A stretch of DNA of 23,703 nucleotides from a virus. Taxonomy: Duplodnaviria > Heunggongvirae > Uroviricota > Caudoviricetes. Shown here piece after piece: positions 982 through 17,145 of the stretch. A program made the position numbers and the translations under genes. The notes below the pieces were generated by a model. It searched no databases, was not told where the DNA came from, and saw only the letters and a list, made by a program, of their open reading frames with translations. Position 1 is the first letter of the stretch; each line of letters begins with the position of its first letter. The stretch is from IMG/VR virus record IMGVR_UViG_2585427753_000011. One strand, given 5' to 3'.

Positions 982-1050
982 AAGAAAGCCCTCCGGCGCT
1001 GTATTCACCATCTTGGTAGCAAATGGTGAAAATGTAATCTTTATATAGAG

Positions 1051-1753: not shown

Positions 1754-1755
1754 TT

Positions 1756-1926: not shown

Positions 1927-2423
1927 CAGTGATGACGCTTAATCTCGTTGAAAAACAGCCAGCAGCTATGCGCCGGATAATTGGTAAGCATCTGGCCGTC
2001 CCTCGCTGGCAGGATACATGTGATTATTATAATCAGATGATGGAACGCGAACGGCTAACAGTTTGCTTTCATGCGCAGTTAAAACAACGTCATGCAACGA
2101 TGCGTTTTGAAGAAATGAACGACGTCGAACGTGAACGGCTGGTTTGTGCAATTGATGAATTGCGTGGGGCATTCTCAAAACGCCGTCAGGTTGGCGCAAG
2201 TGAGTATGCATATATTAGTTTTTTAACAGTCAGTCAGCGTCGTACTTTATTTATGCATGCCGGATTGACTGAAAAAGAATTCAACCAGCCATACTGGCGA
2301 ATTAATGAAGAGTCATGTTACTGGCGTGATGCTTTATTCCGTGCATTACGTGAATTATTCAGCCTGTTTGAGTATGCACCGACAATTCTGACGTCGGTAA
2401 AACCAGAGCAATATCTGCATTAA
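1923..2423 (+). CDS. B: Replication protein B (helicase-loader-like)
   Basis: 166-aa ORF, same length and position as P2 B. Confidence 0.85.
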   Translation: MTVMTLNLVEKQPAAMRRIIGKHLAVPRWQDTCDYYNQMMERERLTVCFHAQLKQRHATMRFEEMNDVERERLVCAIDELRGAFSKRRQVGASEYAYISFLTVSQRRTLFMHAGLTEKEFNQPYWRINEESCYWRDALFRALRELFSLFEYAPTILTSVKPEQYLH

Positions 2424-2486
2424 ATAATTAACCAGAGTTTTAAACGCACTTAATCGTGCGGGGCTTCTTTTTGCCTGGAGAAAGTC

Positions 2487-2711
2487 ATGCATACAGTTTC
2501 TGAAAATCAGTGCGGTAAATACGCATTACTGCTGCAACAGGCCAGAACCGAAGCACAGGCTGACGCTGCGACGCGCTTTTCTTCTCATCTTGACGCCATG
2601 ATTCGCCATATCACAAAGGCGGAGTTATCCCGCGTGGAGATAGTCGAGCTACTCAGTCAGGAGTCGGAAAAATTTCACAATATCGGATTGTCTCGCGGGG
2701 AGGGGCTTTGA
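2487..2711 (+). CDS. Hypothetical early protein (P2 orf80-like)
   Basis: 74-aa ORF in conserved position; stop overlaps next start. Confidence 0.6.
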
Positions 2712-3010
2712 TGTCCTGTTCTCATTCAGTTGTATTACTGAATAACGCCTTAAAAATCGCCGTTATGAAAAATGGCGATTTGTCTCTTATCCAACTTTGT
2801 CTTGATAAAGAAAAACGCGACATCACTGAATCTGTTATCGCGATTTATCAGAGCGAATTAAACCTCCTGTCTGATGTGATCAATTTACTTGTGAAACGCG
2901 CTGTATTCCACAAGCAAATTTCCTCAGTGGATGAACTGACAAAATTAACGACAGAACTCGCCAGTTATTGCGCTGATGTATCCAGGAAACTTAACGATAA
3001 AAGGAGCTGA
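2708..3010 (+). CDS. Hypothetical early protein (P2 orf81-like)
   Basis: 100-aa ORF, translationally coupled to neighbours. Confidence 0.6.
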
Positions 3011-3012
3011 TA

Positions 3013-3237
3013 ATGCCGGACAACGTAGATTTTATTCAGGAACAACAGGCTGAATTACTGGAGCGCCAGATTAACGCGGCAAGGGTAAAACATTGCGGTG
3101 TTTCTTCGCTGGTTTGCGAAGAGTGTGACGCTCCAATACCTGCTGCCCGTCGTGCGGCTTATCCGTCAGCCACGCGTTGTGTTTCCTGTCAGTCAGTCTT
3201 TGAAGCAAAAAACAAACATTACCGGAGAACGGCATGA
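3013..3237 (+). CDS. TraR/DksA-family C4 zinc-finger protein (P2 orf82-like)
   Basis: 74 aa with CxxC...CxxC (CEECDAPIP...CVSCQ), typical of phage TraR/DksA-like zinc fingers. Confidence 0.75.
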   Translation: MPDNVDFIQEQQAELLERQINAARVKHCGVSSLVCEECDAPIPAARRAAYPSATRCVSCQSVFEAKNKHYRRTA

Positions 3238-3509
3238 GTATTCGTATTGAAATTGGCGAACGTTATGTCGTTACCAGTGACAGCTTTCAGTTTATTCTCC
3301 ACGAGAAAAAGAGAGCGGAAAGCGGTAAAAACGCCGGTCAGGAATGGCTGGCGGTGGTTGGTTATTACCCGAAATTAAGCCAGCTCGTTTCCGGCCTGAT
3401 GCATCACGATATTCTGACCGGAAGCGCAAAGTCTTTTGCTGATTTAAACGGGCAGGTTGAGCAACTCAGCAAGCGTTGTTCAGAGGCTTTTGGCTCATAT
3501 GGCCGTTAA
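3234..3509 (+). CDS. Hypothetical early protein (P2 orf83-like)
   Basis: 91-aa ORF; stop overlaps the A start. Confidence 0.6.
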   Translation: MSIRIEIGERYVVTSDSFQFILHEKKRAESGKNAGQEWLAVVGYYPKLSQLVSGLMHHDILTGSAKSFADLNGQVEQLSKRCSEAFGSYGR

Positions 3510-5778
3510 AGCCTCCGGGCGTTTTGTCCCTCCGTCAGCATTTGCCGCAGGCACCGGTAAGACGTTTACCGGTGCTTATGCATGGAACGCGCCACGCGAG
3601 GCCGTCGGGCGCGAAAGACCCCTTACACGTGACGAGATGCGTCAGGTGCAAGGTGTTTTATCCACGATTAACCGCCTGCCTTACTTTTTGCGTTCGCTGT
3701 TTACTTCACGCTATGACTACATCCGGCGCAATAAAAGCCCGGTGCACGGGTTTTATTTCCTCACATCCACTTTTCAGCGTCGTTTATGGCCGCGCATTGA
3801 GCGCGTGAATCAGCGCCATGAAATGAACACCGACGCGTCGTTACTGTTTCTGGCAGAGCGTGACCACTATGCGCGCCTGCCGGGAATGAATGACAAGGAG
3901 CTGAAAAAATTTGCCGCCCGTATCTCATCGCAGCTTTTCATGATGTATGAGGAACTCTGCGATGCCTGGGTGGATGCCCATGGCGAAAAAGAATCGCTGT
4001 TTACGGATGAGGCGCAGGCTCACCTGTATGGTCATGTTGCTGGCGCTGCACGTGCTTTCAATATTTCCCCGCTCTACTGGAAAAAATACCGTAAAGGACA
4101 GATGACCACGAGGCAGGCATATTCTGCCATTGCCCGCCTGTTTAACGATGAGTGGTGGACTCATCAGCTTAAAGGCCAGCGTATGCGCTGGCATGAGGCG
4201 TTACTGATTGCTGTCGGGGAGGTCAATAAAGACCGTTCTCCTTATGCCAGTAAACATGCCATTCGTGATGTGCGTGCACGCCGCCAGGCAAATCTGGAAT
4301 TTCTTAAATCGTGTGACCTTGAAAACAGGGAAACCGGCGAGCGCATCGACCTTATCAGTAAGGTGATGGGCAGTATTTCTAATCCTGAAATTCGCCGGAT
4401 GGAGCTGATGAACACCATTGCCGGTATTGAGCGTTACGCCGCAGCAGAGGGTGATGTGGGGATGTTTATCACGCTGACCGCGCCGTCAAAGTATCACCCG
4501 ACACGTCAGGTCGGAAAAGGCGAAAGTAAAACCGTCCAGCTAAATCACGGCTGGAACGATGAGGCATTTAATCCAAAGGATGCGCAGCGTTATCTCTGCC
4601 ATATCTGGAGCCTGATGCGCACGGCATTCAAGGATAATGATTTACAGGTCTACGGTTTGCGTGTCGTCGAGCCACACCACGACGGAACGCCGCACTGGCA
4701 TATGATGCTTTTTTGTAATCCACGCCAGCGTAACCAGATTATTGAAATCATGCGTCGCTATGCGCTCAAAGAGGATGGCGACGAAAGAGGAGCCGCGCGA
4801 AACCGTTTTCAGGCAAAACACCTTAACCGGGGCGGTGCTGCGGGATATATCGCGAAATACATCTCAAAAAACATCGACGGCTATGCACTGGATGGTCAGC
4901 TCGATAATGATACCGGTAGGCCGCTGAAAGACACAGCTGCGGCTGTTACCGCATGGGCGTCAACGTGGCGCATTCCGCAATTTAAAACGGTTGGTCTGCC
5001 GACAATGGGGGCTTACCGTGAACTACGCAAATTGCCTCGCGGCGTCAGCATTGCTGATGAGTTTGACGAGCGCGTCGAGGCTGCACGCGCCGCTGCAGAC
5101 AGTGGTGATTTTGCGTTGTATATCAGCGCGCAGGGCGGGGCAAATGTCCCGCGCGATTGTCAGACTGTCAGGGTCGCCCGTAGCCCGTCGGATGACGTTA
5201 ACGAGTACGAGGAAGAAGTCGAGAGAGTGGTCGGCATTTACGCGCCGCATCTCGGCGCGCGTCATATTCATATCACCAGAACGACGGACTGGCGCATTGT
5301 TCCGAAAGTGCCGGTCGTTGAGCCTTTGACTTTAAAAAGCGGCATCGCCGCGCCTCGGAGTCCTGTCAATAACTGTGGAAAGCTCACCGGTGGTGATACT
5401 TCGTTACCGGCTCCCACACCTTCTGAGCACGCCGCAGCAGTGCTTAATCTGGTTGATGACGGTGTTATTGAATGGAATGACCAGGAGGTCGTGAGGGCGC
5501 TCAGGGGCGCATTAAAACGAGGTCTGAGAAGACCAAACCGTCAGCAAAGAAACGGAAGCCCGTTAAAACAGCATGAAATGGCACCATCGGCCAGACTGAC
5601 CCGGTCAGAACGAATGCAAATTACCCGTATCCGCGTTGACCTTGCTCAGAACGGTATCAGGCCGCAGCGATGGGAGCTTGAGGCGCTGGCGCGTGGAGCA
5701 ATTGTAAATTACGACGGGAAAAAATTCACGTATCCAGTCGCTGATGAGTGGCGGGGATTCTCAGCAGTAATGGAGTGA
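3499..5778 (+). CDS. A: Replication initiation endonuclease A (rolling-circle HUH endonuclease)
   Basis: Track ORF 3457..5778; start set at ATG 3499 (MAVKASGRF...) by resemblance to the P2 gpA N-terminus and coupling to the upstream stop. Contains a histidine-rich HUH-type motif (HHDGTPHWHMMLF). Confidence 0.9.
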   Translation: MAVKASGRFVPPSAFAAGTGKTFTGAYAWNAPREAVGRERPLTRDEMRQVQGVLSTINRLPYFLRSLFTSRYDYIRRNKSPVHGFYFLTSTFQRRLWPRIERVNQRHEMNTDASLLFLAERDHYARLPGMNDKELKKFAARISSQLFMMYEELCDAWVDAHGEKESLFTDEAQAHLYGHVAGAARAFNISPLYWKKYRKGQMTTRQAYSAIARLFNDEWWTHQLKGQRMRWHEALLIAVGEVNKDRSPYASKHAIRDVRARRQANLEFLKSCDLENRETGERIDLISKVMGSISNPEIRRMELMNTIAGIERYAAAEGDVGMFITLTAPSKYHPTRQVGKGESKTVQLNHGWNDEAFNPKDAQRYLCHIWSLMRTAFKDNDLQVYGLRVVEPHHDGTPHWHMMLFCNPRQRNQIIEIMRRYALKEDGDERGAARNRFQAKHLNRGGAAGYIAKYISKNIDGYALDGQLDNDTGRPLKDTAAAVTAWASTWRIPQFKTVGLPTMGAYRELRKLPRGVSIADEFDERVEAARAAADSGDFALYISAQGGANVPRDCQTVRVARSPSDDVNEYEEEVERVVGIYAPHLGARHIHITRTTDWRIVPKVPVVEPLTLKSGIAAPRSPVNNCGKLTGGDTSLPAPTPSEHAAAVLNLVDDGVIEWNDQEVVRALRGALKRGLRRPNRQQRNGSPLKQHEMAPSARLTRSERMQITRIRVDLAQNGIRPQRWELEALARGAIVNYDGKKFTYPVADEWRGFSAVME

Positions 5779-6019
5779 ACGTCGCCCGTTGCGAAAATTA
5801 TTTACAGGGGGCAGCGTTAAGCATCTAAAGATCTTGTTCTATGATTAGAATGTTTCCTCGTTGCACTCTCGTATAGTTATTTAATGGGAAGATGTACTCT
5901 ATATGTTGTGTTTTGGTGATAAATGAAGCCAAAGGAAGGAGATTTTGCTTGATTGATGGGCGCTCTTTGCTATACACCTTGTATTGAGAAGGAGAAGTAA
6001 TCAAGGATTAAGCTGGCTT

Positions 6020-6073
6020 TTGTCAAAAATCTGAAAAGCTTTTTTGACTGAATACGATAGCGAGTTGTACTAT
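6020..6073 (+). promoter_or_regulatory. Candidate sigma70 promoter with overlapping inverted repeats upstream of the cargo membrane operon
   Basis: -35 TTGACT (6044-6049), 18-nt spacer, -10 TACTAT (6068-6073), ~35 nt upstream of ATG 6108. Inverted repeat GTCAAAAA (6022-6029) / TTTTTGAC (6041-6048) and palindrome AAAAGCTTTT (6034-6043) overlap the -35. Confidence 0.35.
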
Positions 6074-6107
6074 TTGCGCCCTCAAAAGTAACCGGCGGCT
6101 GGGTAAA

Positions 6108-6482
6108 ATGGGGAAGCAAGGCAAAGGCAAAGGCAACAAAAATCAGGTTAAGGTTACGTGGGCTCAGGCGTGGCGGGATGTAATGATAAGAGCCATGTCT
6201 AATGGTCAGTTGATACCTATTACCATCAGTATTATTTTAATGATTGCTGCATGGAGGTTACCAAAAACAGACTTGTCCAATTTAGCCTTCTCTATTGTTG
6301 ATGGCTTTAAGGAGCATTCCTTGGTTGGTTGGGCTATCTCGGTAATAGTGGGTTTGGCTTGGTCTGCACATGCGCGAATCATGAGGCGCTGTTTTAGTTC
6401 CGAGGCACAGAGAATCGGTAACGAGAAAACAAAGTATCAACAAAGACAGACCACTCAAGCCTTGGGTACAAGTGATAAATAG
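6108..6482 (+). CDS. Cargo gene 1: small two-transmembrane-helix protein with Lys/Gly-rich N-terminus
   Basis: 124-aa ORF; two hydrophobic segments (LIPITISIILMIAAW; LVGWAISVIVGLAWSAHA). Weak SD, so start is uncertain (alternative Met at 6183/6195). AT-rich relative to backbone. Confidence 0.6.
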   Translation: MGKQGKGKGNKNQVKVTWAQAWRDVMIRAMSNGQLIPITISIILMIAAWRLPKTDLSNLAFSIVDGFKEHSLVGWAISVIVGLAWSAHARIMRRCFSSEAQRIGNEKTKYQQRQTTQALGTSDK

Positions 6483-6502
6483 TTGTTTATTTAGGAGTTA
6501 TT

Positions 6503-7060
6503 ATGCTGACAGTGCTGTTTTATGTGCTGTTGGGTTTAGGCGCAGCACACTTCATTTACGAGCGAATCATTTTGCCGTCCATCCGACTTCATTATAGAAA
6601 CCAATTGTTTGCGCTTCGTGATGTCGCTAGGAGGAAAATCATTGATGGAGGTTCCGATACTTCCATGCAAGCGGCAACACTTGTGCATGACTCATTGAAT
6701 AACGCTATCAATAGATTGCATTTACTCACGTTGCCAAACAAATTTCGTGCTCAAAAGCGTATGGCAGAAAACCATGCAATAAGGCAGAAAATTCGGCGTG
6801 AGATAGATGTTTTCAAACGCTGTGATGATAGAGAAGTTGTTGATGTACTGTTTAAATCCGGTCGGATACTTGAAAATGTACTGTTATTCAATAGCTTAAT
6901 GTTATTGCTTTACATGTTTCCATTTGTCCTTGCTGTATGGTTCTGTGTTAGGGTCATAAAGACAGCAAGTAGTTTAGTACAGTGGGTCAAAGGAAGAGAT
7001 TTAGAGGAAGCTATAATGCTGCTTCCTGATACTCAGGTTGAAAAGGTTGTATACGCATAA
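6503..7060 (+). CDS. Cargo gene 2: membrane protein with N- and C-terminal hydrophobic helices
   Basis: 185-aa ORF with strong SD (AGGAG ~5 nt upstream); hydrophobic N-terminus (LTVLFYVLLGLGAAHFIY) and C-terminal segment (LLFNSLMLLLYMFPFVLAVWFCV) around a charged helical region; 20 nt after gene 1. Confidence 0.7.
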   Translation: MLTVLFYVLLGLGAAHFIYERIILPSIRLHYRNQLFALRDVARRKIIDGGSDTSMQAATLVHDSLNNAINRLHLLTLPNKFRAQKRMAENHAIRQKIRREIDVFKRCDDREVVDVLFKSGRILENVLLFNSLMLLLYMFPFVLAVWFCVRVIKTASSLVQWVKGRDLEEAIMLLPDTQVEKVVYA

Positions 7061-7088
7061 AAATCACCCCTTAGGGGGTGATTTTTTT
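7061..7088 (+). terminator. Rho-independent terminator ending the two-gene membrane operon
   Basis: Stem ATCACCCC (7063-7070) / GGGGTGAT (7075-7082), loop TTAG, followed by a T-run; immediately after the stop at 7060. Confidence 0.8.
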
Positions 7089-7299
7089 ACATGACTTTTG
7101 ATTAGCTGACATTGTAAATCCGCATGTATCAGATGCATTGTTTTGCATGTGGAAATGGGTGTTTTCACTGCCAGCTATCGCTACATGTAGCAAAAACACG
7201 GGCTTAATAAGAAATCATTCTGCCATAAGGCATAACTTCCCCGCGTGCTCAGGTATTGACGTCATAGATATGGATCTTTTTTAATCAAGGTATGGTATT

Positions 7300-8247
7300 A
7301 TGAAGATATTTATTAGTTGGTCAGGTCAGGACAGCCTGGAGATAGCAAAAGTATTACGGGATTGGATACCGAATGTTATTCAAGTAGCTGAGCCGTACGT
7401 ATCAGCGGAAGATATTGATAAAGGCACTCGCTGGGCGACTGATATATCAAAGGAACTTGATGACTCTTCTTATGGGATTATTTGCCTTACAAAAAATAAT
7501 ATTAATGCACCGTGGATAAATTTTGAGGCGGGTGCTTTAGGTAAAAAGGTTGATAAGAGCCGGGTTAGTCCTTTCTTGTTTAAAATTAAACCATCTGAGA
7601 TAACAGGCCCAATATTACAATTCCAGTATACTCGTTCGGATGATAAGAACGATATTTTGAAGTTGATGTTGTCAATAAATAATCAAGCAGGATTTTTGAC
7701 TGAAGAACGCTTAACTAAAGCTTTCGAGCAATGGTGGCCAAGTTTAGAGCGTGAGTTAGATAACATTCAAGATATTAACCCTGTAGATAAAGATTCCACT
7801 AAAAAAACAAAAGGTGATTCGACTTCTGAGATACAAAATCTTTCCAAAATTGTTGAAAGTTTGCTGGATATTAGCCGAACAAATCACCAATTATTGCGTG
7901 ATCCAGCATCATTATTGCCAGAAGAATATGTTAGCAAAATAATAAACAGGGAAGGGCGTAAAGAAACTGTTTTAAAAATTGTAGCTTCTGATTTATTATC
8001 CATGCATCATTCACTAATTCGTGTAAAAAGAAGATTTATTCGTCGTGGTATTGATGAAACATCTAGGAGCGAGTTAATTGAATCATTAAATAAAATGATA
8101 ATGGATTGTTCTAGAGTAATCGCTCACTTAGATAATTATTGTGGGGCTTCATCAAACAATATGTTCAATAGTGCGCTTAGATTGCGGACCAGAAATTTAA
8201 TTGACATGATGGATGAGGAGGATGCAGAACGGGATGAAATGGAATAA
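7300..8247 (+). CDS. Cargo gene 3: TIR-domain protein with uncharacterised C-terminal helical domain
   Basis: 315 aa. N-terminal ~130 aa has TIR hallmarks: KIFISWSGQDS first strand, GIICLT strand, and W-x-x-F-E-A-G motif (WINFEAGAL) aligning by eye with the catalytic-Glu region of bacterial TIR NADases. C-terminal ~170 aa has no motif I recognise. Own transcription unit. Confidence 0.75.
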   Translation: MKIFISWSGQDSLEIAKVLRDWIPNVIQVAEPYVSAEDIDKGTRWATDISKELDDSSYGIICLTKNNINAPWINFEAGALGKKVDKSRVSPFLFKIKPSEITGPILQFQYTRSDDKNDILKLMLSINNQAGFLTEERLTKAFEQWWPSLERELDNIQDINPVDKDSTKKTKGDSTSEIQNLSKIVESLLDISRTNHQLLRDPASLLPEEYVSKIINREGRKETVLKIVASDLLSMHHSLIRVKRRFIRRGIDETSRSELIESLNKMIMDCSRVIAHLDNYCGASSNNMFNSALRLRTRNLIDMMDEEDAERDEME

Positions 8248-8298
8248 TCAATTTTGACTAATCATAAATAATTTTGCATATATAAACTTATAATGCCG

Positions 8299-8321
8299 CA
8301 GCCGCTATTTTTCAGCGGCTG
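8299..8321 (+). other. Stem-loop downstream of the TIR gene (possible weak terminator or RNA structure)
   Basis: CAGCCGCT (8299-8306) / AGCGGCTG (8314-8321), 7-nt loop ATTTTTC; no U-tract after the stem. Confidence 0.3.
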
Positions 8322-8791
8322 TATATCGCTTATAATGGGTATGTTATTTTTATTTTGATAAAATCATTAAAATTGTCGATGTTATATGAATGCACATGTA
8401 TTATTAATGTTAGAAGATTATGCCTGCTTACGGCTATTGTGCTGAATTCAACTATGAACGCATCAGTATTAAAATCGTTCCATGAAATGTTCTTCGTCTA
8501 CAGCAGATGATGGGCAACGAAAAAATGACGCTGAGTGAGTTGGTCGGGGAGAATTGTTAGAGGTATTTATGGAGTGGTTTAATAATATCGGTCAATCCTG
8601 AGTTGCAGCATCACATAGACGATAGGGAATCTCTCCAGTCGTTCTGGAATGGCAGCGTTGAACAACAAGCACAGCGAGGCGTTAGATGCCCATCAGATTG
8701 ACACAGAGGGTTTATGAATCGCTGGGATTTACTTAGTTTGAAAAATAATATATTTATATGTTTTTGTATTGTGTTTGTTAAGGAGTTTGGA

Positions 8792-8998
8792 TTGAAAAGA
8801 AAACTGATTTGTGTTATGGCTTTTTGGGGGGCGTTGCTGGCTGGTTGTAATGAGAGTAATAAAAAAGAAGTTGAGGGTTGTATTGAAAGAGGTGTCCAAT
8901 ATTTTATAGAGATTGGTTCTTACCCTAAATTAAGTGATGGGCGTGATGCTGTAAAAGTTGCTACTGAACGTTGTAATAGAACAATAACGGCTTTCTGA
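8792..8998 (+). CDS. Cargo gene 4: small predicted lipoprotein (lipobox LLAGC)
   Basis: Track ORF 8714..8998 has an improbable N-terminus. An in-frame TTG at 8792 follows AGGAG (8781-8785, 6-nt spacer) and gives (M)KRKLICVMAFWGALLAG-C: a basic n-region, hydrophobic core and lipobox Cys. Mature protein ~49 aa. Confidence 0.6.
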   Translation: MKRKLICVMAFWGALLAGCNESNKKEVEGCIERGVQYFIEIGSYPKLSDGRDAVKVATERCNRTITAF

Positions 8999-9000
8999 TA

Positions 9001-9918
9001 ATGGATTATACGAGCTATATAATAGGACAGCTTCAGGTTGAGGATATTATTGATGCAATTAAAGGCGTTAATAATACTAATGTCATAAAAGATTATGTGC
9101 TGCCTGTAGTATTACCAATTATATCTTCTGTGCTGAGTTACTTTATTGCAACTAGGTTGTTTTATCGGCAGGAGGACCTTAAAGCACAAAGAAGAAAGGT
9201 AAGCGTTGTAAATAAATGTATTTATGACTACTTTTCTGCAATGACAACGTTGTTGCAAATTAAAGGGAATTATTATGGTGGGGTAAGTATAAGTGAAAAT
9301 CCTATCGAGAGGGCTTTAGCTTTTCCTGTTGTGGTTTTTTCTGGTGCTCCTCTATCATCAGATTTAAGTGAGTTGGCCTGTATATTGAGTCAAAAGGGAG
9401 TAGGGAATAATAGAGAGCCAGCAAAGACTACTAACTGGGGGGATGCTTTTGCTGTTAGTGATATAGCAAGAAGGTTTAACAGCCTATTGGCTGCATTAAA
9501 TGTTAGGAATGATTTTGATGACACCTATAGAGGAATGATTATTGAATCAACAGGTTCACCTTTGCCTACGATGCGTTTTAAAAATGATGATATTGTTAAT
9601 GCTATAGGTAGTAATAAGGCAGCTTATTACATTGATATTACTGAGCAAATAATGATTATGATAGATGTTTTGTTGCTTGATATTAATCTGTTGCTCAAAG
9701 AGTTGCCATTGTATGCTGAATCGCTGTTTGACAAAAGAGTAATGCAAGAAGATTCAGGGATTCTTAAATTCAATGATTTGCACGAACGTTTTCCTCTACT
9801 TATGAAACCTGTAACGCCACCTTCGATTAAACTCATGTCTGATTATTTGGGGTACAGTGAAGATGAGATCTTACGACGCTATCCATACCCGTTCTTTAAT
9901 ATGCATGATTGTGAATGA
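9001..9918 (+). CDS. Cargo gene 5: 305-aa protein with one N-terminal transmembrane helix, no recognisable domain
   Basis: Starts 2 nt after the lipoprotein stop (translational coupling). Hydrophobic segment VLPVVLPIISSVLSYFIATRLF near the N-terminus; AT-rich codon usage. Confidence 0.7.
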   Translation: MDYTSYIIGQLQVEDIIDAIKGVNNTNVIKDYVLPVVLPIISSVLSYFIATRLFYRQEDLKAQRRKVSVVNKCIYDYFSAMTTLLQIKGNYYGGVSISENPIERALAFPVVVFSGAPLSSDLSELACILSQKGVGNNREPAKTTNWGDAFAVSDIARRFNSLLAALNVRNDFDDTYRGMIIESTGSPLPTMRFKNDDIVNAIGSNKAAYYIDITEQIMIMIDVLLLDINLLLKELPLYAESLFDKRVMQEDSGILKFNDLHERFPLLMKPVTPPSIKLMSDYLGYSEDEILRRYPYPFFNMHDCE

Positions 9919-10021
9919 ATGTGCATATGTCAGAAGCCGTTTTTATTGTCAGTTATCGTCAGTGCTGGCGCGCTCTTGGAGTGTTCATGCAACTGCATTA
10001 AAACCGCCCCACGAAGCGGGC

Positions 10022-10040
10022 GGGCGAGGCGGGGAAAGCA
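10022..10040. other. Probable cos cohesive-end site
   Basis: GGCGAGGCGGGGAAAGCAC at 10022-10040 matches the P2 19-nt cohesive end as I recall it; in a GC-rich non-coding stretch just upstream of portal Q, where cos lies in P2. Confidence 0.6.
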
Positions 10041-10170
10041 CTGCGCGCTGGCGGTGGTGATGATTGTCTGAGCGCGTCGTGATGGCGTTTAGATTGTGCG
10101 CCGGGGCGTTGGTGTGTCTGCGGGGTGTTTTGTACAGTGGCGAGCGTGTGAGGGCGTGATGACGGGGGTG

Positions 10171-10198: not shown

Positions 10199-11233
10199 TC
10201 AGCCGTTGTCAGTGTCCAGTGAGTAGTTTTTAAAGCGGATGACCTCCTGACCGAGCCAGCCGTTTATTTCCCGAATCCTGTCCTGTAACGGGATAAGTTC
10301 ATTGCGGACAAAGACCTTTGCCACTTTCTCAATATCGCCCAGCGACCCGACGTTTTCCGGCTTGCCACCCATCAACTGAAAGGGGATGCGGTGCGCGTCC
10401 AGCAGGTCAGCGGCGCTGGCTTTTTTGATATTAAAAAAATCGTCCTTCGTGGCCACTTCACTGAGCGGGATAATTTTAATGCCGTCGGCTTTTCCCTGTG
10501 GGGCATAGAGAAACAGGTTTTTAAAGTTATTGCGGCCTTTCGACTTCACCATGTTTTCGCGGAGCATTTCGATATCGTTGCGATCCTGCACGGCATCAGT
10601 GACGTACATGATGTATCCGGCATGTGCGCCGTTTTCGTAATACTTGCGGCGGAACAGCGTGGCCGACTCATTCAGCCAGGCAGAGTTAAGGGCGCTGAGA
10701 TATTCCGGCAGACCGTACAGCTCCTGATTAATATCCGGCTCCAGCAGGTGAAACACGGAGCCGGGCGCGAAAGGTGTCGGCTCGTTGAAGGACGGCACCC
10801 ACCAGTAAACATCCTCCTCCACGCCACGGCGGGGATATTTTGCCGGGGAGGGTTCCAGTCTGATGACCTTACCGGTGGTGCTGTAACGCTTTTCCAGAAA
10901 CGCATTACCGAATACCAGAAAATCCAGCACAAAGCGGCTGAAATCCTGCTGAGAAAGCCACGGGTGTGGGATAAACGTTGAGGCCAGAATGTTACGTTTG
11001 ACGTAAATCGGTGAGCTGTGATGCACGGCAGCACGCAGGCTTTTTGCCAGACCGGTAAAGCTGACTGGTGGCTCATACCATCTGCCGTTACTGATGCACT
11101 CGACGTAATCCAGAATGTCACGGCGGTCGAGTACCGGCACCGGCTCACCAAAGGTGAATGCCTCCATTTTCGGGGCGCTGGCGGTCATTTTTTTTGCCGC
11201 AGGTTGCGGTGTTTTCCCTTTTTTCTTGCTCAT
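10199..11233 (-). CDS. Q: Portal protein Q
   Basis: 344 aa, same length as P2 gpQ and recognisable sequence (MSKKKGKTPQPAAKK...); adjacent to cos. Confidence 0.9.
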   Translation of the reverse strand: MSKKKGKTPQPAAKKMTASAPKMEAFTFGEPVPVLDRRDILDYVECISNGRWYEPPVSFTGLAKSLRAAVHHSSPIYVKRNILASTFIPHPWLSQQDFSRFVLDFLVFGNAFLEKRYSTTGKVIRLEPSPAKYPRRGVEEDVYWWVPSFNEPTPFAPGSVFHLLEPDINQELYGLPEYLSALNSAWLNESATLFRRKYYENGAHAGYIMYVTDAVQDRNDIEMLRENMVKSKGRNNFKNLFLYAPQGKADGIKIIPLSEVATKDDFFNIKKASAADLLDAHRIPFQLMGGKPENVGSLGDIEKVAKVFVRNELIPLQDRIREINGWLGQEVIRFKNYSLDTDNG

Positions 11234-11979
11234 CAGTAAAACTCCAGAATGGTGGATGTCAGCGGGGTGCTGATACCGGCGGTGAGTGGCTCATTTAACA
11301 GGGCGTGCATGGTCGCCCAGGCGAGGTCGGCGTGGCTGGCTTCCTCGCTACGGCTGGCCTCATAGGTGGCGCTGCGTCCGCTGCTGGTCATGGTCTTGCG
11401 GATAGCCATGAACGAGCTGGTGATGTCGGTGGCGCTGCGTCCGCTGCTGGTCATGGTCTTGCGGATAGCCATGAACGAGCTGGTGATGTCGGTGGCGCTG
11501 CGTCCGCTGCTGGTCATGGTCTTGCGGATAGCCATGAACGAGCTGGTGATGTCGGTGGCGCTGCGTCCGCTGCTGGTCATGGTCTTGCGGATAGCCATGA
11601 ACGAGCTGGTGATGTCGGTGGCGCTGCGTCCGCTGCTGGTCATGGTCTTGCGGATAGCCATGAACGAGCTGGTGATGTCGGTGGCGCTGACGTCATATTC
11701 CAGACAGCCACGGCGGATGACGTCTTTTGCCTTGAGCACCATTGCGGTTTTCATTTCCGGCGTGTAGCGGATATCGCGTGCGGCGGGATAGAACGAGCGC
11801 ACGAGCTGGAACACGCCGACACCGAGGCCGGTGGCATCAATTCCGATGTATTCGACGTTGTATTTTTCGGTGAGTTTGCGGATGGATTCCGCCTGAGTGG
11901 CAAAGTCCATGCCTTTCCACTGGTGACGCTCAAGTATTCTGAATTTACCTCCGGCCACCACCGGCGGTGCCAGCACCAC
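11233..11979 (-). pseudogene. P: Terminase large subunit P, C-terminal remnant with internal tandem-repeat expansion
   Basis: 248-aa frame that opens at GTG with no upstream gene context. Reads as the C-terminal part of P2 terminase ATPase/nuclease, plus four extra 21-aa repeat copies. N-terminal ~400 aa absent; upstream sequence runs straight into endolysin K. Confidence 0.8.
11368..11682. repeat. Perfect 63-bp tandem repeat, 5 copies, in-frame within the terminase remnant
   Basis: GGCGCTGCGT recurs at 11368, 11431, 11494, 11557, 11620, then partially at 11683; on the minus strand this encodes SATDITSSFMAIRKTMTSSGR x5. Copies are identical by eye. Confidence 0.9.
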
Positions 11980-11995
11980 GCATCCGGCGCTGGCC

Positions 11996-12439
11996 GTGTC
12001 CGAAGGGACGGCGAATCATCCGCTGACGAAAAACCGGGGCTATGACGTGATAGTCACCGGACTGGACGGAAAGCCGGAAATTTTCACCGACTACAGTGAC
12101 CACCCGTTCGCACATGGTCGACCGGCGAAGGTGTTTAACCGTCGCGGTGAAAAATCCACGGCCTCCGGTCGCTATCAGCAGCTTTACCTGTTCTGGCCGC
12201 ATTACCGCAAACAGCTTGCCCTGCCGGATTTCAGTCCGTTGTCACAGGACAGGCTCGCCATTCAGTTGATCCGCGAACGCGGTGCACTGGATGACATCCG
12301 GGCGGGACGCATTGAGCGCGCCATTTCACGCTGTCGCAATATCTGGGCGTCCCTGCCGGGTGCCGGTTACGGTCAGCGTGAGCATCCACTGGAAAAACTG
12401 GTCACCGTCTGGCGTACCGCCGGCGGCGTACCGGCTTAA
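11996..12439 (+). pseudogene. K: Endolysin K, N-terminally truncated
   Basis: Frame reads SEGTANHPLTKNRGYDVIVTGLDGKPEIF... to ...TAGGVPA, which I recognise as P2 lysozyme K lacking roughly its first 18 residues. No holin Y upstream; the frame opens at a GTG at the deletion junction. Confidence 0.75.
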
Positions 12440-12453
12440 ACGGAGTAAACACC

Positions 12454-12879
12454 ATGAAGAAATTATCCCTTTCACTGATGCTGAATGTGCCGCTGGCGCT
12501 GATGCTGGCACTGTCCCTGATTTACCCGCAGAGCGTGGCCGTCAGTTTTGTCGCCGCCTGGGCGATTCTGGCGACGGTTATCTGTGTGGTTGCCGGTGGT
12601 GTCGGCGTGTATGCCACTGAGTATGTGCTGGAACGCTACGGGCGGGAGCTGCCGCCGGAATCGCTGGCCGTGAAGATTGTCACGTCGCTGTTTTTGCAGC
12701 CGGTGCCGTGGCGCAGACGGGCAGTAGCTCTGGTGGTGATGGTGGCGACGTTTATCTCGCTGGTCGCTGCCGGGTGGATTTTTACCGCGCTGATTTATCT
12801 TGTGGCGTCGCTGTTTTTCCGGCTGATACGTAAAGCCTGCCGTCAGCGTTTTGAGGGGCGGGAACCATGTCAAAGCTGA
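12454..12879 (+). CDS. lysA: Lysis accessory membrane protein LysA
   Basis: 141 aa, multi-TM, same size and position as P2 LysA. Confidence 0.85.
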   Translation: MKKLSLSLMLNVPLALMLALSLIYPQSVAVSFVAAWAILATVICVVAGGVGVYATEYVLERYGRELPPESLAVKIVTSLFLQPVPWRRRAVALVVMVATFISLVAAGWIFTALIYLVASLFFRLIRKACRQRFEGREPCQS

Positions 12880-13292
12880 TGATTGTGCTGGTTGTGCTGT
12901 TATCGCTGGCGGTGGCGGGGCTGTTTCTGGTGAAGCATGAAAACGCCAGCCTGCGCGCCTCGCTGGACAGGGCGAACAACGTCGCCAGTGAACAGCAGAC
13001 GACCATCACCATGCTGCAAAATCAGCTTCATGTTGCCATCACCAGGGCAGACAAAAACGAGCTGGCGCAGGTGGCACTGCGTCAGGAACTGGAGAACGCC
13101 GCGAAGCGTGAAGCACAGCGCGAGAAAACCATCACGAGGTTACTTAATGAAAACGAAGATTTTCGCCGCTGGTATGGCGCTGACCTGCCTGATGCTGTGC
13201 GCCGGTTGCACCAGCGCCCCGCCTGCACCGACGCCAGTGATTGTCGCCAACGCCTGCCCGAAAGTGAGCCTTTGCCCGATGCCGGGCAGTGA
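12867..13292 (+). CDS. lysB: LysB (Rz-like inner-membrane spanin)
   Basis: 141 aa with N-terminal TM helix and coiled-coil region; P2 LysB size and position. Confidence 0.85.
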   Translation: MSKLMIVLVVLLSLAVAGLFLVKHENASLRASLDRANNVASEQQTTITMLQNQLHVAITRADKNELAQVALRQELENAAKREAQREKTITRLLNENEDFRRWYGADLPDAVRRLHQRPACTDASDCRQRLPESEPLPDAGQ

Positions 13293-13437
13293 CCCGGAGA
13301 CGAACGGCGATTTAAGTGCCGATATCCGGCAGCTTGAGAACGCGCTGGCACGTTGTGCCAGCCAGGTAAAAATGATTAAACACTGTCAGGACGAAAACGA
13401 TGCTCAAACCCGACAGCCTGCGCAGGGCGCTGACTGA
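13147..13437 (+). CDS. lysC: LysC (Rz1-like outer-membrane lipoprotein spanin), out of frame across the lysB 3' end
   Basis: Track ORF 12937..13437; real start is ATG 13147 (MKTKIFAAGMALTCLMLCAG-C, lipobox), giving 96 aa as in P2 LysC; Pro-rich mature region. Confidence 0.8.
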   Translation: MKTKIFAAGMALTCLMLCAGCTSAPPAPTPVIVANACPKVSLCPMPGSDPETNGDLSADIRQLENALARCASQVKMIKHCQDENDAQTRQPAQGAD

Positions 13438-13867
13438 TGCCGTCACGGTGCTGAAAACTAACCCCGATATGCTGCGGATATTCGTGGATAACGGGAGTAT
13501 TGCCTCCACACTGGCGGCGTCGTTGTCATTCGAAAAGCGTTACACGCTCAATGTCATTGTGACCGACTTTACCGGTGATTTTGACCTGCTCATCGTGCCG
13601 GTGCTGGCGTGGCTGCGGGAAAATCAGCCCGACATCATGACCACCGACGAAGGCCAGAAAAAGGGCTTCACGTTTTATGCAGACATCAACAATGACAGCA
13701 GCTTTGATATCAGTATCAGCCTGATGCTGACCGAGCGCACGCTGGTCAGTGAGGTTGACGGTGCGCTGCATGTGAAGAATATCCCGGAACCTCCGCCGCC
13801 GGAGCCAGTCAATCGCCCGATGGAGCTTTATATCAATGGTGAACTGGTGAGCAAGTGGGATGAATGA
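13400..13867 (+). CDS. R: Tail completion protein R
   Basis: 155 aa, P2 gpR length and position. Confidence 0.85.
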   Translation: MLKPDSLRRALTDAVTVLKTNPDMLRIFVDNGSIASTLAASLSFEKRYTLNVIVTDFTGDFDLLIVPVLAWLRENQPDIMTTDEGQKKGFTFYADINNDSSFDISISLMLTERTLVSEVDGALHVKNIPEPPPPEPVNRPMELYINGELVSKWDE

Positions 13868-14312
13868 GTTTAAGCGTTTTGAAGACCGACTGACCGGACT
13901 GATTGAATCGCTGTCACCGTCTGGGCGTCGGCGACTGAGTGCAGAACTGGCGAAACGTCTGCGGCAGAGTCAGCAGCGTCGGGTGATGGCACAGAAAGCT
14001 CCGGACGGCACACCCTACGCACCACGCCAGCAGCAGAGCGCCAGAAAAAAGACCGGTCGCGTTAAGCGAAAAATGTTTGCGAAACTTATCACCAGTCGTT
14101 TTTTGCATATCCGCGCCAGCCCTGAACAGGCATCAATGGAGTTTTACGGCGGGAAGTCACCGAAAATCGCCAGTGTGCATCAGTTCGGTCTGTCGGAAGA
14201 AACCCGGAAAGACGGTAAGAAAATTGATTATCCGGCGCGTCCTCTGCTCGGCTTTACCGGTGAGGATGTGCAGATGATTGAAGAGATTATCCTGGCTCAC
14301 CTTGAGCGTTAG
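13860..14312 (+). CDS. S: Tail completion protein S
   Basis: 150 aa, P2 gpS length and position. Confidence 0.85.
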   Translation: MNEFKRFEDRLTGLIESLSPSGRRRLSAELAKRLRQSQQRRVMAQKAPDGTPYAPRQQQSARKKTGRVKRKMFAKLITSRFLHIRASPEQASMEFYGGKSPKIASVHQFGLSEETRKDGKKIDYPARPLLGFTGEDVQMIEEIILAHLER

Positions 14313-14342
14313 TTTTATCCAGACAGAGGCTGATGCGCAATT

Positions 14343-14377
14343 AAACATTGAGCGGCCATGCTGGTCGCTCAATGTTT
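14343..14377. terminator. Bidirectional terminator hairpin between convergent S and the orf30-position gene
   Basis: 12-bp stem AAACATTGAGCG (14343-14354) / CGCTCAATGTTT (14366-14377), 11-nt loop; between stop codons at 14310-14312 (+) and 14384-14386 (-). Confidence 0.6.
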
Positions 14378-14383
14378 AGAGGT

Positions 14384-15169
14384 TTATGAGTGATTTTTAT
14401 TTGATGCTTTGTATTCTAAAACCTTCTTATTGGCGTAAAAGAATTTTGTATATGACAGGAATATAACCAGACCTGAAGTGAAATAGACGAGGGATAGTAT
14501 TAATAATGCTTTTTTGCGACTGTTATTATCTTTAATCTCCAGGCTTAACCATTCGGAGTCCTCCTCGTTTAGCTGTAAGAGCTTATTGCAGGCGATTTCA
14601 GGAAGTGTGTCTTTTATAAATACGTTTTGCAGTCTCTTGCAATCGGCAAGGCTATAAGTTTTATTAAATTCAACTGCTTTATTTTTGAAGGATAAAAGAA
14701 CTTTGTCACTATAAACATAGTACATCATGTTTTTATATGGTATGCCTATGGCATCCCTTACTATAACGGATTGTTCGTTGTGTATGTAACATGCGAGGAG
14801 AATGTAAAAAATACTGGCCAGAATTACAATTATTGTTTTAATTATGTGTGGTGGTTTTGTTATGTCACCCCAGATGCGAGTAAGGAAAAAATACGATGTT
14901 TTTAGTTTTCCATCAATCAGTCCCTGCTGTATCATTCTCACATTTTCAATGCCTGATACATTGATTCCGTTAATTATTTTAAATAGTTGAATGTCGCGCC
15001 ACTCGCGGTCAAGTCTTTTTAATTTTTTGTCTGAATATCCAAAATTGAAATAATGTGCAATAAGCCTCATAAGGTTACTTTTACCAAAGCTAAAAAATGC
15101 TAATACTGCAAAGCTACAAAGGAAAAAAACGATTAGCCCCCACACATTAGTCACATTATAGCTGACCAT
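14384..15169 (-). CDS. AT-rich moron at the P2 orf30 position: membrane protein with ~3 TM helices, unknown function
   Basis: 261-aa ORF antisense to the late operons between S and V; hydrophobic segments near aa 9-28, 111-131 and 228-247; Lys/Asn/Ile/Phe-rich. Confidence 0.7.
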   Translation of the reverse strand: MVSYNVTNVWGLIVFFLCSFAVLAFFSFGKSNLMRLIAHYFNFGYSDKKLKRLDREWRDIQLFKIINGINVSGIENVRMIQQGLIDGKLKTSYFFLTRIWGDITKPPHIIKTIIVILASIFYILLACYIHNEQSVIVRDAIGIPYKNMMYYVYSDKVLLSFKNKAVEFNKTYSLADCKRLQNVFIKDTLPEIACNKLLQLNEEDSEWLSLEIKDNNSRKKALLILSLVYFTSGLVIFLSYTKFFYANKKVLEYKASNKNHS

Positions 15170-15252
15170 TACGCTCTCCTTGAATGTTGTCTGGTAGTTC
15201 TACAAATGAATCCAGATAGCATAACTTTTATATATTGTGCAATCTCACATGC

Positions 15253-15888
15253 ATGAACACTCTCGCAAATATTCAGGAACTCGCGCGCGCACTGCGCAAC
15301 ATGATTCGCACCGGCATTATCGTCGAAACCGACCTTAACGCCGGTCGCTGCCGCGTGCAGACCGGCGGCATGTGCACCGACTGGCTTCAGTGGCTGACCC
15401 ATCGCGCCGGTCGTTCGCGCACATGGTGGGCACCTTCCGTGGGGGAACAGGTGCTGATTCTGTCCGTGGGCGGTGAACTCGACACGGCGTTTGTTCTGCC
15501 GGGGATTTATTCCGGCGATAATCCCGCGCCGTCTGCGTCGGCGGATGCCCTGCATATCCGTTTCCCTGACGGGGCGGTGATTGAGTATGAACCCGAAACC
15601 AGTGCGCTCACGGTAAGCGGAATTAAAACGGCCAGCGTGACGGCTTCCGGTTCTGTTACTGCCACTGTGCCGGTGGTCATGGTGAAAGCGTCAACCCGCA
15701 TCACCCTGGACACACCGGAGGTGGTCTGCACCAACAGGCTGATTACCGGCACGCTGGAAGTGCAGAAGGGCGGGACGATGCGCGGCAACATTGAACACAC
15801 CGGCGGTGAACTCTCATCAAACGGTAAGGTACTGCATACCCATAAACACCCCGGCGACAGCGGCGGCACAACCGGGAGTCCTCTATGA
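15253..15888 (+). CDS. V: Baseplate spike protein V
   Basis: Track ORF 15235..15888; start set at ATG 15253 (MNTLANIQELARA...) to give the 211-aa P2 gpV; stop overlaps W start. Confidence 0.9.
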   Translation: MNTLANIQELARALRNMIRTGIIVETDLNAGRCRVQTGGMCTDWLQWLTHRAGRSRTWWAPSVGEQVLILSVGGELDTAFVLPGIYSGDNPAPSASADALHIRFPDGAVIEYEPETSALTVSGIKTASVTASGSVTATVPVVMVKASTRITLDTPEVVCTNRLITGTLEVQKGGTMRGNIEHTGGELSSNGKVLHTHKHPGDSGGTTGSPL

Positions 15889-16232
15889 CAGCGCGTTATC
15901 TCGGAATGAATCGCAGTGATGGCCTGACGGTCACTGACCTTGAGCATATCAGCCAGAGTATCGGCGATATCCTGCGCACACCGGTCGGCTCACGGGTGAT
16001 GCGCCGTGATTACGGCTCGTTGCTGGCGTCAATGATTGACCAGCCGCAGACCCCGGCGCTTGAGTTGCAGATTAAGGTCGCCTGTTACATGGCGGTGCTG
16101 AAATGGGAACCCCGCGTCACCCTGTCATCCGTCACCACGGCGCGCAGTTTTGACGGGCGAATGACGGTCACGTTAACCGGTCAGCACAACGACACCGGTC
16201 AGCCACTTTCGTTAACCATCCCTGTGAGTTGA
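15885..16232 (+). CDS. W: Baseplate wedge protein W
   Basis: 115 aa, P2 gpW length and position. Confidence 0.9.
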   Translation: MTARYLGMNRSDGLTVTDLEHISQSIGDILRTPVGSRVMRRDYGSLLASMIDQPQTPALELQIKVACYMAVLKWEPRVTLSSVTTARSFDGRMTVTLTGQHNDTGQPLSLTIPVS

Positions 16233-16236
16233 AACC

Positions 16237-17145
16237 ATGCCGATTATCGACCTGAACCAGCTACCCGCACCGGATGTGGTCGAGGAGCTGGACTTTGAAA
16301 CCATTCTTGCCGAACGCAAGGCGACACTGATTTCCCTTTACCCGGAAGACCAGCAGGAGGTGGTCGCCCGTACCCTGACGCTGGAATCGGAGCCTCTCGT
16401 CAAACTGCTGGAAGAAAATGCTTATCGTGAGCTTATCTGGCGTCAGCGTGTGAATGAGGCCGCACGGGCGGTGATGCTGGCCTGTGCCGCCGGTAATGAC
16501 CTTGATGTGATTGGTGCCAATTACAACACCACACGCCTGATTATCATCCCGGCAGATGATTCGACCATCCCGCCGACACCGGCAGTGATGGAATCTGACA
16601 CCGATTATCGTCTGCGTATTCAGCAGGCGTTTGAAGGTTTAAGCGTTGCCGGGTCGGTGGGAGCCTATCAGTATCATGGTCGCAGTGCCGACGGGCGTGT
16701 CGCGGATATCTCTGTCACCAGTCCGTCTCCGGCCTGTGTCACTATCTCCGTGCTGTCCCGAGAAAATAACGGTGTCGCATCCGAAGACCTGCTGGCTGTG
16801 GTGCGTAACGCTCTTAATGGCGAGGACGTCAGGCCGGTGGCTGACCGTGTGACCGTGCAGTCTGCCGCCATTGTTGAATACCAGATAAACGCCACGCTGT
16901 ATCTTTACCCTGGTCCAGAAAGCGAACCCATCCGCGCCGCCGCCGTGAAAAAACTGGAAGCGTACATCACGGCACAGCACCGGCTGGGGCGCGACATCCG
17001 TCTGTCTGCCATTTATGCCGCTTTGCATGTGGAAGGCGTGCAGCGTGTCGAACTGACTGCACCGCTGGCTGACATCGTGCTCAACAGTACGCAGGCGTCT
17101 TTCTGCACCGAATACAGCGTCGTGACCGGAGGCTCGGATGAGTGA
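16237..17145 (+). CDS. J: Baseplate protein J
   Basis: 302 aa, P2 gpJ length and position. Confidence 0.9.
   Translation: MPIIDLNQLPAPDVVEELDFETILAERKATLISLYPEDQQEVVARTLTLESEPLVKLLEENAYRELIWRQRVNEAARAVMLACAAGNDLDVIGANYNTTRLIIIPADDSTIPPTPAVMESDTDYRLRIQQAFEGLSVAGSVGAYQYHGRSADGRVADISVTSPSPACVTISVLSRENNGVASEDLLAVVRNALNGEDVRPVADRVTVQSAAIVEYQINATLYLYPGPESEPIRAAAVKKLEAYITAQHRLGRDIRLSAIYAALHVEGVQRVELTAPLADIVLNSTQASFCTEYSVVTGGSDE

Follow-up and report, generated by a model that had tools for sequence, protein, structure and literature searches.

The window analysed here is the 23,703 nt of the IMG/VR virus record IMGVR_UViG_2585427753_000011. It is a P2-like prophage resembling phage P2_AC1, and the element of interest is a cassette of two plus-strand genes (8792-9918) that encode a 68-aa lipoprotein and a 305-aa protein with a single transmembrane (TM) helix, the latter referred to as gene 2. 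We found that both open reading frames (ORFs) are real genes with supported starts, that the pair moves as a unit between arrangements of the P2 gpA-gpQ hotspot, that its two members diverged together in three P2 lineages and that it is independent of the neighbouring Rst 2TM-1TM-TIR defence system. The interpretation that we prefer, held at a little short of even confidence, is a mobile two-gene moron in which gene 2 would be a membrane-anchored anti-phage protein and the effector, whatever its exact anti-phage function, with the lipoprotein as a lineage-specific periplasmic accessory. The anti-phage function, the interaction of the two proteins and the mechanism are what we infer from these results. 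What stands out is the clean natural genetics of the cassette, together with a 305-aa fold that has no relatives. The features of the cassette are the following.

8642-8791, plus strand: AT-rich leader, left end of the cassette, where the blastn homology block shared with E. coli MS 16-3 (MS16-3, locus L002) begins
8780-8785, plus strand: Shine-Dalgarno (SD) sequence AAGGAG, 6 nt before the TTG, read from the sequence; an SD-like motif is likewise present in four diverged homologous loci
8792-8998, plus strand: gene of the 68-aa prelipoprotein with TTG start (ORF, conservation, ratio of nonsynonymous to synonymous substitution rates (dN/dS), AlphaFold2 (AF2) model)
8821-8831, plus strand: T5G6 homopolymer tract within the signal-peptide codons (DNA alignment)
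9001-9918, plus strand: gene of the 305-aa bitopic inner-membrane protein, start ATG 9001 (ORF, HMMER family, AF2, dN/dS)
9013-9093, plus strand: conserved N-terminal helix and KDY motif, residues 5-31, predicted periplasmic (family consensus AI..LK.....KDY..P)
9094-9162, plus strand: single TM helix, approximately residues 32-54, with Y32 nearly invariant and P35 invariant (hydropathy scan, family alignment)
9163-9915, plus strand: predicted cytoplasmic alpha-helical bundle of ~250 aa

The two genes and their products

Both proteins match orthologous groups of the PHROG collection that have no assigned function (E 1e-37 for the lipoprotein and 7e-149 for the 305-aa protein). Between diverged copies dN/dS was 0.15-0.35 for the lipoprotein gene and 0.11-0.25 for gene 2, and an exhaustive HMMER search gave 201 homologous clusters (50% identity) of the 305-aa family, mostly 275-320 aa long and of the same architecture. 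These ratios mean that purifying selection acts on both genes. A word-indexed protein search had returned only 2-5 clusters per query, so that the exhaustive search was needed to reveal the family. Because of the PHROG matches, the dN/dS of 0.1-0.35 at 53-77% protein identity and the 201 clusters we conclude that both ORFs are genuine genes.

The sequence bears out both ORFs, the TTG start at 8792, the AAGGAG motif and the lipobox LLAG-C, all of which a preliminary description of this DNA had reported. The signal peptide is MKRKLICVMAFWGALLAG (codons 8792-8845), followed by the lipobox cysteine Cys19 (codon 8846-8848), and the ORF closes with TGA at 8996-8998. An n-region MKRK, an h-region LICVMAFWGAL and the LAG-C lipobox follow one another as in lipoproteins processed by signal peptidase II (SPII), and the 68-aa product is predicted to be a Sec/SPII lipoprotein. 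Its length agrees with the ~68 aa given before; the predicted mature peptide counted from Cys19 has 50 aa rather than ~49. The start is also supported by conservation: the same codon is ATG in MS16-3, L003, L004 and the GC-rich locus L006, each time with an upstream SD-like motif, and the 26-aa extension from ATG 8714 that yields the 94-aa protein of the Prokaryotic Genome Annotation Pipeline (PGAP/NCBI) is not conserved. The true length of the small gene is thus 68 aa and not 94 aa, and the TTG start is well supported. A lipobox-type cysteine after a hydrophobic stretch occurs in 22 of 24 distinct homologues, though their signal peptides have diverged; the other two carry a TM anchor instead, and one homologue matches the Pfam family LPAM_1. 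Upstream of the gene, the leader presumably holds the promoter region; a consensus promoter scan gave no strong or convincing sigma-70 site upstream of 8792.

Structure prediction, which had been suggested as a check, gave a model for the lipoprotein and a fold of no known kin for its partner. The AF2 model of the lipoprotein is a two-helix hairpin with a predicted local distance difference test (pLDDT) score above 90 for residues 25-65; helix 15-40 and helix 53-63 are joined by a loop that contains the conserved GSYP. The invariant residues Cys30 and Cys61 sit on separate helices of the mature protein, which makes a disulfide staple between them likely in the model. Position +2 is occupied by Asn in the window but by Asp in L003 and L004, so the sorting signal is ambiguous. 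In E. coli the +2 rule governs to which membrane a lipoprotein goes, and different membranes are therefore predicted for these orthologues.

The AF2 model of the 305-aa protein is confident and all-alpha (pLDDT 88.6, predicted template modelling score 0.81). A fold search with this model returned generic helical bundles only and no relative in the PDB. The protein has one hydrophobic segment at approximately residues 32-54, in agreement with the single N-terminal TM helix described before, and no catalytic motif was identified in it, again as described. Conserved positions across the family are Y32, P35, K88, N90, Y91, P101, R104, N158, R169, N170, E215 and D222. In 55 of 65 family members the C-terminal side of the TM helix carries more lysine and arginine than the N-terminal side. 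Several architectural variants have additions in front of the conserved N-terminal helix, namely a cleavable signal peptide in P0084 and an extra TM helix with a 60-90-aa segment in P0096, P0100, P0117 and P0123. In P0119 and P0136 the anchor is replaced by two TM helices with the motif 'GDYFGG..P', and in P0110, a fusion protein of 569 aa, two more TM helices and another helical domain are added; P0084, P0110, P0119 and P0136 gave no Pfam match. As the charge bias and the variants with a signal peptide or extra TM helix all put the large domain on the cytoplasmic side, an N-out/C-in topology is predicted, with ~250 aa in the cytoplasm and only ~30 residues in the periplasm. The preliminary description had proposed an envelope module. 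Its membrane-anchored protein stands, but a large protein acting in the envelope is contradicted by the short periplasmic part, the bulk being predicted to be cytoplasmic.

The statement that neither protein belongs to a described family also held. For the lipoprotein with 8 diverse relatives and the 305-aa protein with 65 diverse relatives we found nothing beyond noise in Pfam, NCBIfam, PADLOC and the PDB sequences; the best PADLOC E-value among the 65 family members was 0.0025, in isolated matches, and neither of the two proteins matched PADLOC-DB v2.0.0 at E-values up to 0.1. A literature search by accession, system name and P2 lipoproteins found neither family named or characterised.

Pairing, mobility and distribution

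Wherever the 305-aa homologue has at least 52% identity, in three diverged lineages, the lipoprotein gene lies directly upstream of it. At least five arrangements of the hotspot contain the cassette.

Arrangement 1: pair with the Rst TIR system
Arrangement 2: pair with DUF3850, a hypothetical gene and a 333-aa gene (MS16-3)
Arrangement 3: pair with DUF3850 only
Arrangement 4: pair alone between gpA and Q
Arrangement 5: pair with a 433-aa MauJ/DzbB-like gene

The blastn homology block shared with MS16-3 covers 8642-10048 and is separate from the TIR block, which means that the cassette brings its own 150-nt leader. Pairwise amino acid identities of the two proteins run in parallel, with 59/57/76% for the lipoprotein and 57/53/77% for the 305-aa protein. 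The pair therefore moves as a unit between hotspot arrangements, and its two genes have diverged together in the three P2 lineages.

The preliminary description had called the two genes translationally coupled. In the window the TGA of the lipoprotein ORF and ATG 9001 are separated by the 2 nt 'TA' (junction TGAtaATG), and this junction is specific to the lineage of the window and MS16-3, in which gene 2 has no SD sequence of its own. L003 and L004 have spacers of 33-36 nt bearing SD-like sequences. Judging from these junctions, coupling would be confined to the window and MS16-3 and does not seem to be conserved among the homologues.

A similar limit applies to the co-occurrence of the genes, which is complete among the close P2-hotspot homologues and absent elsewhere. 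A lipoprotein homologue was found in none of the 20 other loci of the 305-aa family and a full-length 305-aa family member in none of the 22 other lipoprotein loci (six-frame searches with hidden Markov models; the plasmid locus by annotation). Since the families are separate in these 20 and 22 loci, the pair is not an obligate two-component system. The preliminary description had named independent occurrence of the genes in homologous loci as an observation that would speak against it, and this is what all distant homologues show. Alone, the 305-aa family is a recurrent cargo gene of mobile elements, found at the following sites.

L054-L059: between the lambda tail genes I and J
L062: between P2 gpS and gpV
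L060, L061: in the gpA-portal hotspot of other P2-like phages
L014 (Proteus): after TerL, at the edge of a capsid-encoding element resembling phage-inducible chromosomal islands (PICI-like)
L066 (Erwinia conjugative plasmid): between recombinases
L053: adjoining AbiH (E 2e-68)
L051: adjoining ApeA-HEPN (E 1e-54)
L007, L010: at ordinary-looking chromosomal sites

The lipoprotein family is widespread, its homologues coming mostly from environmental metagenomes. Some of them lie beside a resolvase, a DUF262-HNH gene and a methyltransferase (L023) or beside GmrSD (L043), others in ordinary chromosomal neighbourhoods near ureC or yidC/comM. The nearest exception to the separation of the families is L023, where a 280-aa protein has just the N-terminal helix, KD motif and TM module in common with the 305-aa family (hhalign 80%, 42 columns) and has a different C-terminal domain. 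On this IMG/VR contig (positions 1282-2124, minus strand, and 3869-4183, plus strand) the lipoprotein homologue lies 1.7 kb from the 280-aa protein, with a serine recombinase, the DUF262-HNH gene and the methyltransferase as neighbours. The locus may hint at an association of the lipoprotein with the N-terminal helix/TM module, as a single case.

Phage P2_AC1 and two IMG/VR contigs provide a natural mutant of the cassette. In these the homopolymer tract is T5G5, one G fewer than in the window, and the resulting -1 frameshift breaks the lipoprotein ORF (L011/L015/L016, 5822-5831). The frameshifted AC1 ORF ends 92 nt before the start of gene 2, which stays intact, and the small gene is unannotated in the P2_AC1 record. 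The MS16-3 tract is T7G4 and still in frame. Phase variation at the tract was considered and rejected: given the shortness of the 6-nt tract and the apparently clonal inheritance of the frameshift allele with AC1-like phages, we treated T5G5 as an inactivating mutation.

These results bear most directly on the rival explanation that fares best, although we consider it unlikely: that a periplasmic lipoprotein and an inner-membrane 305-aa protein are two functionally independent morons which were captured once as neighbours. The solo occurrence of both families in all loci outside the enterobacterial P2 clade agrees with this explanation, as do the intact gene 2 next to a broken lipoprotein gene in P2_AC1 and the two uncultivated viral genomes (UViGs) and a spacer that ranges from 2 to 36 nt. 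However, order, orientation and tight spacing have been retained through ~45% protein divergence, three lineages and five arrangements, and every close gene 2 homologue seen has the lipoprotein gene directly upstream. The content of the hotspot otherwise turns over fast, so that one would expect a neutral neighbour to have disappeared, and in the lineage of the window gene 2 lacks an SD sequence of its own.

The hotspot and the prophage

Besides the features listed below, the window contains the C and cox genes and a terminase remnant.

1-1011, minus strand: integrase (P2-like prophage backbone)
3457-5778: replication gene A (Phage_GPA match, E 1.6e-124)
6108-6482, 6503-7060 and 7300-8247, plus strand: Rst 2TM-1TM-TIR (PADLOC 2TM-TIR, 1TM-TIR and TIR-TM, E 2e-58 to 2e-118)
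10023-10041, plus strand: P2-type cos cohesive-end sequence, 19 nt, GGCGAGGCGGGGAAAGCAC (exact match, 0 expected by chance)
10199-11233, minus strand: portal gene Q

Positions 1-10022 of the window are 98.7% identical to phage P2_AC1 (OV192280), and the linear record of that phage stops exactly at window position 10022. GGCGAGGCGGGGAAAGCAC is established as the P2 cos sequence. The cos site forms the right edge of the hotspot and is context only, outside the function of the cassette. The lipoprotein gene and gene 2 are the last cargo of the hotspot, 105 nt away from cos. They show the properties of P2 hotspot cargo, lying between A and Q and next to cos, varying among relatives and having an atypical composition: the GC content is 0.36-0.39 for the hotspot and 0.32-0.39 across 7500-10000, compared to 0.53-0.59 for the backbone. 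The location in a defence hotspot, which the preliminary description had proposed, was therefore confirmed as the P2 gpA-gpQ hotspot beside cos; P2_AC1 was isolated in the study that described the gpA-cos stretch as a P2 defence hotspot (Rousset 2022, PMC9122126).

The three Rst genes encode 124, 185 and 315 aa, and a Pfam TIR_2 match was obtained as well. A gap of 545 nt separates the system from the downstream pair on the same strand. Between 8200 and 10250 there was no Rfam match and repeats were at chance level only, and the consensus promoter/terminator scan detected no plus-strand terminator beyond 9918.

Interpretation

According to the interpretation that we prefer, gene 2 is most likely the active component, acting as a membrane-anchored phage-exclusion or abortive-infection protein. 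It would monitor events at the inner membrane or in the periplasm via its conserved N-terminal helix and would act through the cytoplasmic bundle with its invariant polar residues. The enterobacterial P2-hotspot clade would have recruited the lipoprotein to a place upstream of gene 2, where it would probably serve as a periplasmic accessory, co-sensor or modulator acting on the periplasmic helix, by analogy with other lipoprotein and inner-membrane protein pairs.

The anti-phage module anticipated by the preliminary description is thus retained in part. In its favour are the mobility of the unit and a computational prediction: the 305-aa protein (WP_023140581.1) is listed as a 'predicted novel defense gene' with a mean log-odds of 4.84, just above the strict cut-off of 4 (DefensePredictor, Science 2026, Table S10). 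What does not stand is an obligate two-component system. The protein is one of ~1000 predicted E. coli defence candidates of that study and was not among its cloned units, for which the overall validation rate was 45% (DefensePredictor, Science 2026). Of eight additional P2-hotspot candidates three were defensive (Rousset 2022, PMC9122126), and six of eight random unknown loci of the P4 hotspot were defensive in another study (NAR 2026).

Several observations weigh against an anti-phage cassette of this kind. As DefensePredictor uses genomic context and the TIR system is adjacent, its score is partly circular, and other machine-learning methods score only 15-32% of the unknown P2 hotspot proteins as antiviral (NAR 2026). 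The P2 hotspot also holds non-defence cargo, with partitioning systems in ~25% and cdt in ~2% of P2-like phages (Rousset 2022, PMC9122126). The fold search on gene 2 gave generic helical bundles only, and no catalytic motif was identified. The differing +2 residues, with the sorting that they predict, are at odds with a constant contact to a partner in the inner membrane. The separate occurrence of the two families outside the P2-hotspot clade, the broken lipoprotein ORF in P2_AC1 and the two other viral contigs, and the junction sequences, which suggest that coupling is not kept beyond the lineage of the window and MS16-3, weaken an obligate pairing. Finally, only the three TIR/TM genes of AC1 were cloned and these reproduced the lysogen phenotype (Rousset 2022, PMC9122126); with regard to the pair this result is uninformative rather than negative, because the AC1 lipoprotein is frameshifted and any coupling to gene 2 is lost.

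A stronger form of the preferred interpretation, which we regard as decidedly doubtful, is that the 305-aa family is a single-gene, inner-membrane-spanning anti-phage sensor-effector of unprecedented structure that is spread by phages, satellites and plasmids, with the lipoprotein as a co-sensor in the P2 clade. If this were true, infection would be sensed on the periplasmic side when the phage adsorbs or ejects its genome, and the signal would pass through the membrane to a cytoplasmic effector domain of a novel kind.

A rival which we judge rather unlikely sees in the pair a lysogenic-conversion cassette without a role in defence, for example in envelope stress tolerance, colonisation or signalling. 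The partitioning and cdt toxin genes of the P2 hotspot provide a precedent, the lipoprotein and some 305-aa family members occur in chromosomal contexts that do not look mobile (L007, L010, L040, L042), and typical defence domains such as a nuclease or NTPase are absent from both proteins. It is opposed by the recurrence of the 305-aa family at classic phage moron sites and beside AbiH and ApeA, and by the DefensePredictor score.

The preliminary description itself had favoured a superinfection-exclusion module in which the lipoprotein blocks a receptor or DNA entry in the manner of Cor, Llp and Ltp and the 305-aa protein is its envelope partner. The lipoprotein is indeed small, prophage-encoded, genuine and located in a hotspot, and some distant homologues lie in mobile or defence contexts (L023, and L043 with GmrSD). 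We found no specific support for blocking, however, since the lipoprotein has no similarity to the Cor, Llp, Ltp, TraT and Eex families. Most of its homologues are environmental and some have ordinary chromosomal neighbourhoods, the partner is predicted to have ~250 of its 305 residues in the cytoplasm, and the lipoprotein is inactivated in the infectious phage AC1; we therefore consider this model improbable.

That the pair contributes additional components to the Rst system is hardly credible, and co-occurrence together with the published cloning result largely refutes it: although the genes follow 545 nt downstream on the same strand and the five genes are given as one locus arrangement (Rousset 2022, PMC9122126, Table S5), the three TIR/TM genes alone reproduce lysogen defence (Rousset 2022, PMC9122126), the pair occurs without TIR genes in MS16-3 and L063/64 and as diverged copies in CP058063 (L004) and L003, and the cassette homology block begins at 8642, apart from the TIR block.

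Should the preferred interpretation of a mobile anti-phage moron be right, two unannotated protein families would join the anti-phage repertoire, and the pair would be an experimentally accessible example of infection being sensed at the envelope and not in the cytoplasm. Natural alleles are at hand: the window has an intact lipoprotein gene, the isolated phage P2_AC1 has the frameshifted version, and lambda-like and P2-like phages supply solo 305-aa homologues. Regardless of the phenotype, the annotation of the AC1-type hotspot is refined to two independent cassettes and a small gene of 68 aa.

Other observations in the window and related loci

Two further genes accompany the pair in relatives. 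In L003 the 433-aa protein that follows the pair (1808-3109) has a weak MauJ match in Pfam and a weak DzbB match in PADLOC (E 2e-4) and may be a defence candidate. In MS16-3 a 333-aa hypothetical gene (L002, 7588-8589; no PADLOC match) lies between the equivalents of window positions 10048 and 10066. It is on the portal side of cos and thus outside the gpA-cos hotspot; the stretch between cos and gpQ may be another site for cargo.

Between gpS (13860-14312) and gpV (15235-15888) a second low-GC island (0.35) on the minus strand, at 14384-15555, contains two ORFs (261 and 128 aa), neither of which matched Pfam or PADLOC. The island occupies the same S/V insertion site as the 305-aa family homologue of the P2-like phage L062. 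Past the tail-fibre region, where the GC content is again low (0.36), there is a 197-aa ORF (20477-21070), also without Pfam or PADLOC match. In the terminase large-subunit gene a 63-bp unit is repeated in frame in 5.2 tandem copies with 99% match (window 11365-11694 and 11233-11992); related prophages and P2_AC1 have one copy. Compared to P2_AC1 the window lacks two blocks of ~5.3-5.4 kb, with junctions at ~11990 and ~21502. The missing block AC1 26316-31632 comprises the N-terminal two thirds of the terminase, the capsid genes, gpL, gpX and part of the lysis region, and the missing block AC1 11366-16801 comprises the sheath, tube, tape-measure and gpD region. It follows that either the prophage is defective or the window was rearranged.

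Comparison with known systems

Like Cor (phi80/N15), Llp (T5) and Ltp (TP-J34), the lipoprotein of the window is a small SPII lipoprotein encoded by a (pro)phage accessory gene and exposed to the periplasm. It has no sequence similarity to them and is modelled as a two-helix hairpin with a probable disulfide staple; its family is found mostly outside phages, in environmental bacteria, and here it is linked to a second gene. Profiles for Cor, Llp, Ltp, TraT and EexN from Pfam, NCBIfam and PHROGs gave no family match, the only hit being EexN at residues 5-25, within the signal peptide, at an E-value of 0.06 below the cut-off.

Csx28, the pore of type VI-B CRISPR with a TM helix and a HEPN-like domain, resembles the 305-aa protein in that its TM helix is N-terminal and its cytoplasmic domain all-alpha, and it is the top HHblits label of that protein at 9% coverage and 55% probability (DefensePredictor, Science 2026). 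The match is confined to the TM region, the 305-aa protein lacks the Rx4-6H motif, and neither the PDB sequence search nor the fold search returned Csx28. Profile and fold searches thus did not confirm the HEPN, Csx28-like and putAbiC-like leads.

The Rst 2TM-1TM-TIR system shares with the pair the hotspot, the strand, the presence of membrane proteins and the occurrence in P2_AC1. It is nevertheless a separate cassette without common domains which is sufficient alone, and the pair also occurs without it.

Spanins (Rz/Rz1; P2 LysB/LysC) likewise consist of a small lipoprotein and a single-TM helical protein encoded by adjacent phage genes. An i-spanin is N-in/C-out with a periplasmic coiled coil and is encoded in the lysis cassette. 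In the pair the lipoprotein gene comes first, the reverse of the spanin order, the N-out/C-in topology that is predicted is the opposite of that of an i-spanin, and the genes lie in the hotspot and not in the lysis region. On predicted topology and location we rejected a spanin pair. L062, a P2-like phage with a 305-aa homologue, has its own lysis pair elsewhere, a predicted LysB-like TM protein and a lipobox-bearing LysC-like ORF according to our reading of its sequence.

Without any homology, the pair is loosely reminiscent of RcsF-IgaA and NlpE-CpxA, in which a periplasmic lipoprotein is combined with an inner-membrane protein that has a short periplasmic element and a cytoplasmic output domain. 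HK97 gp15, P22 SieA and T4 Imm are single-gene inner-membrane exclusion morons that encode bitopic or small inner-membrane proteins. The 305-aa family has no homology to them and differs in its large conserved cytoplasmic helical domain with invariant polar residues, but its members, as single-gene cargo of tail operons and hotspots, may be regarded as their analogues.

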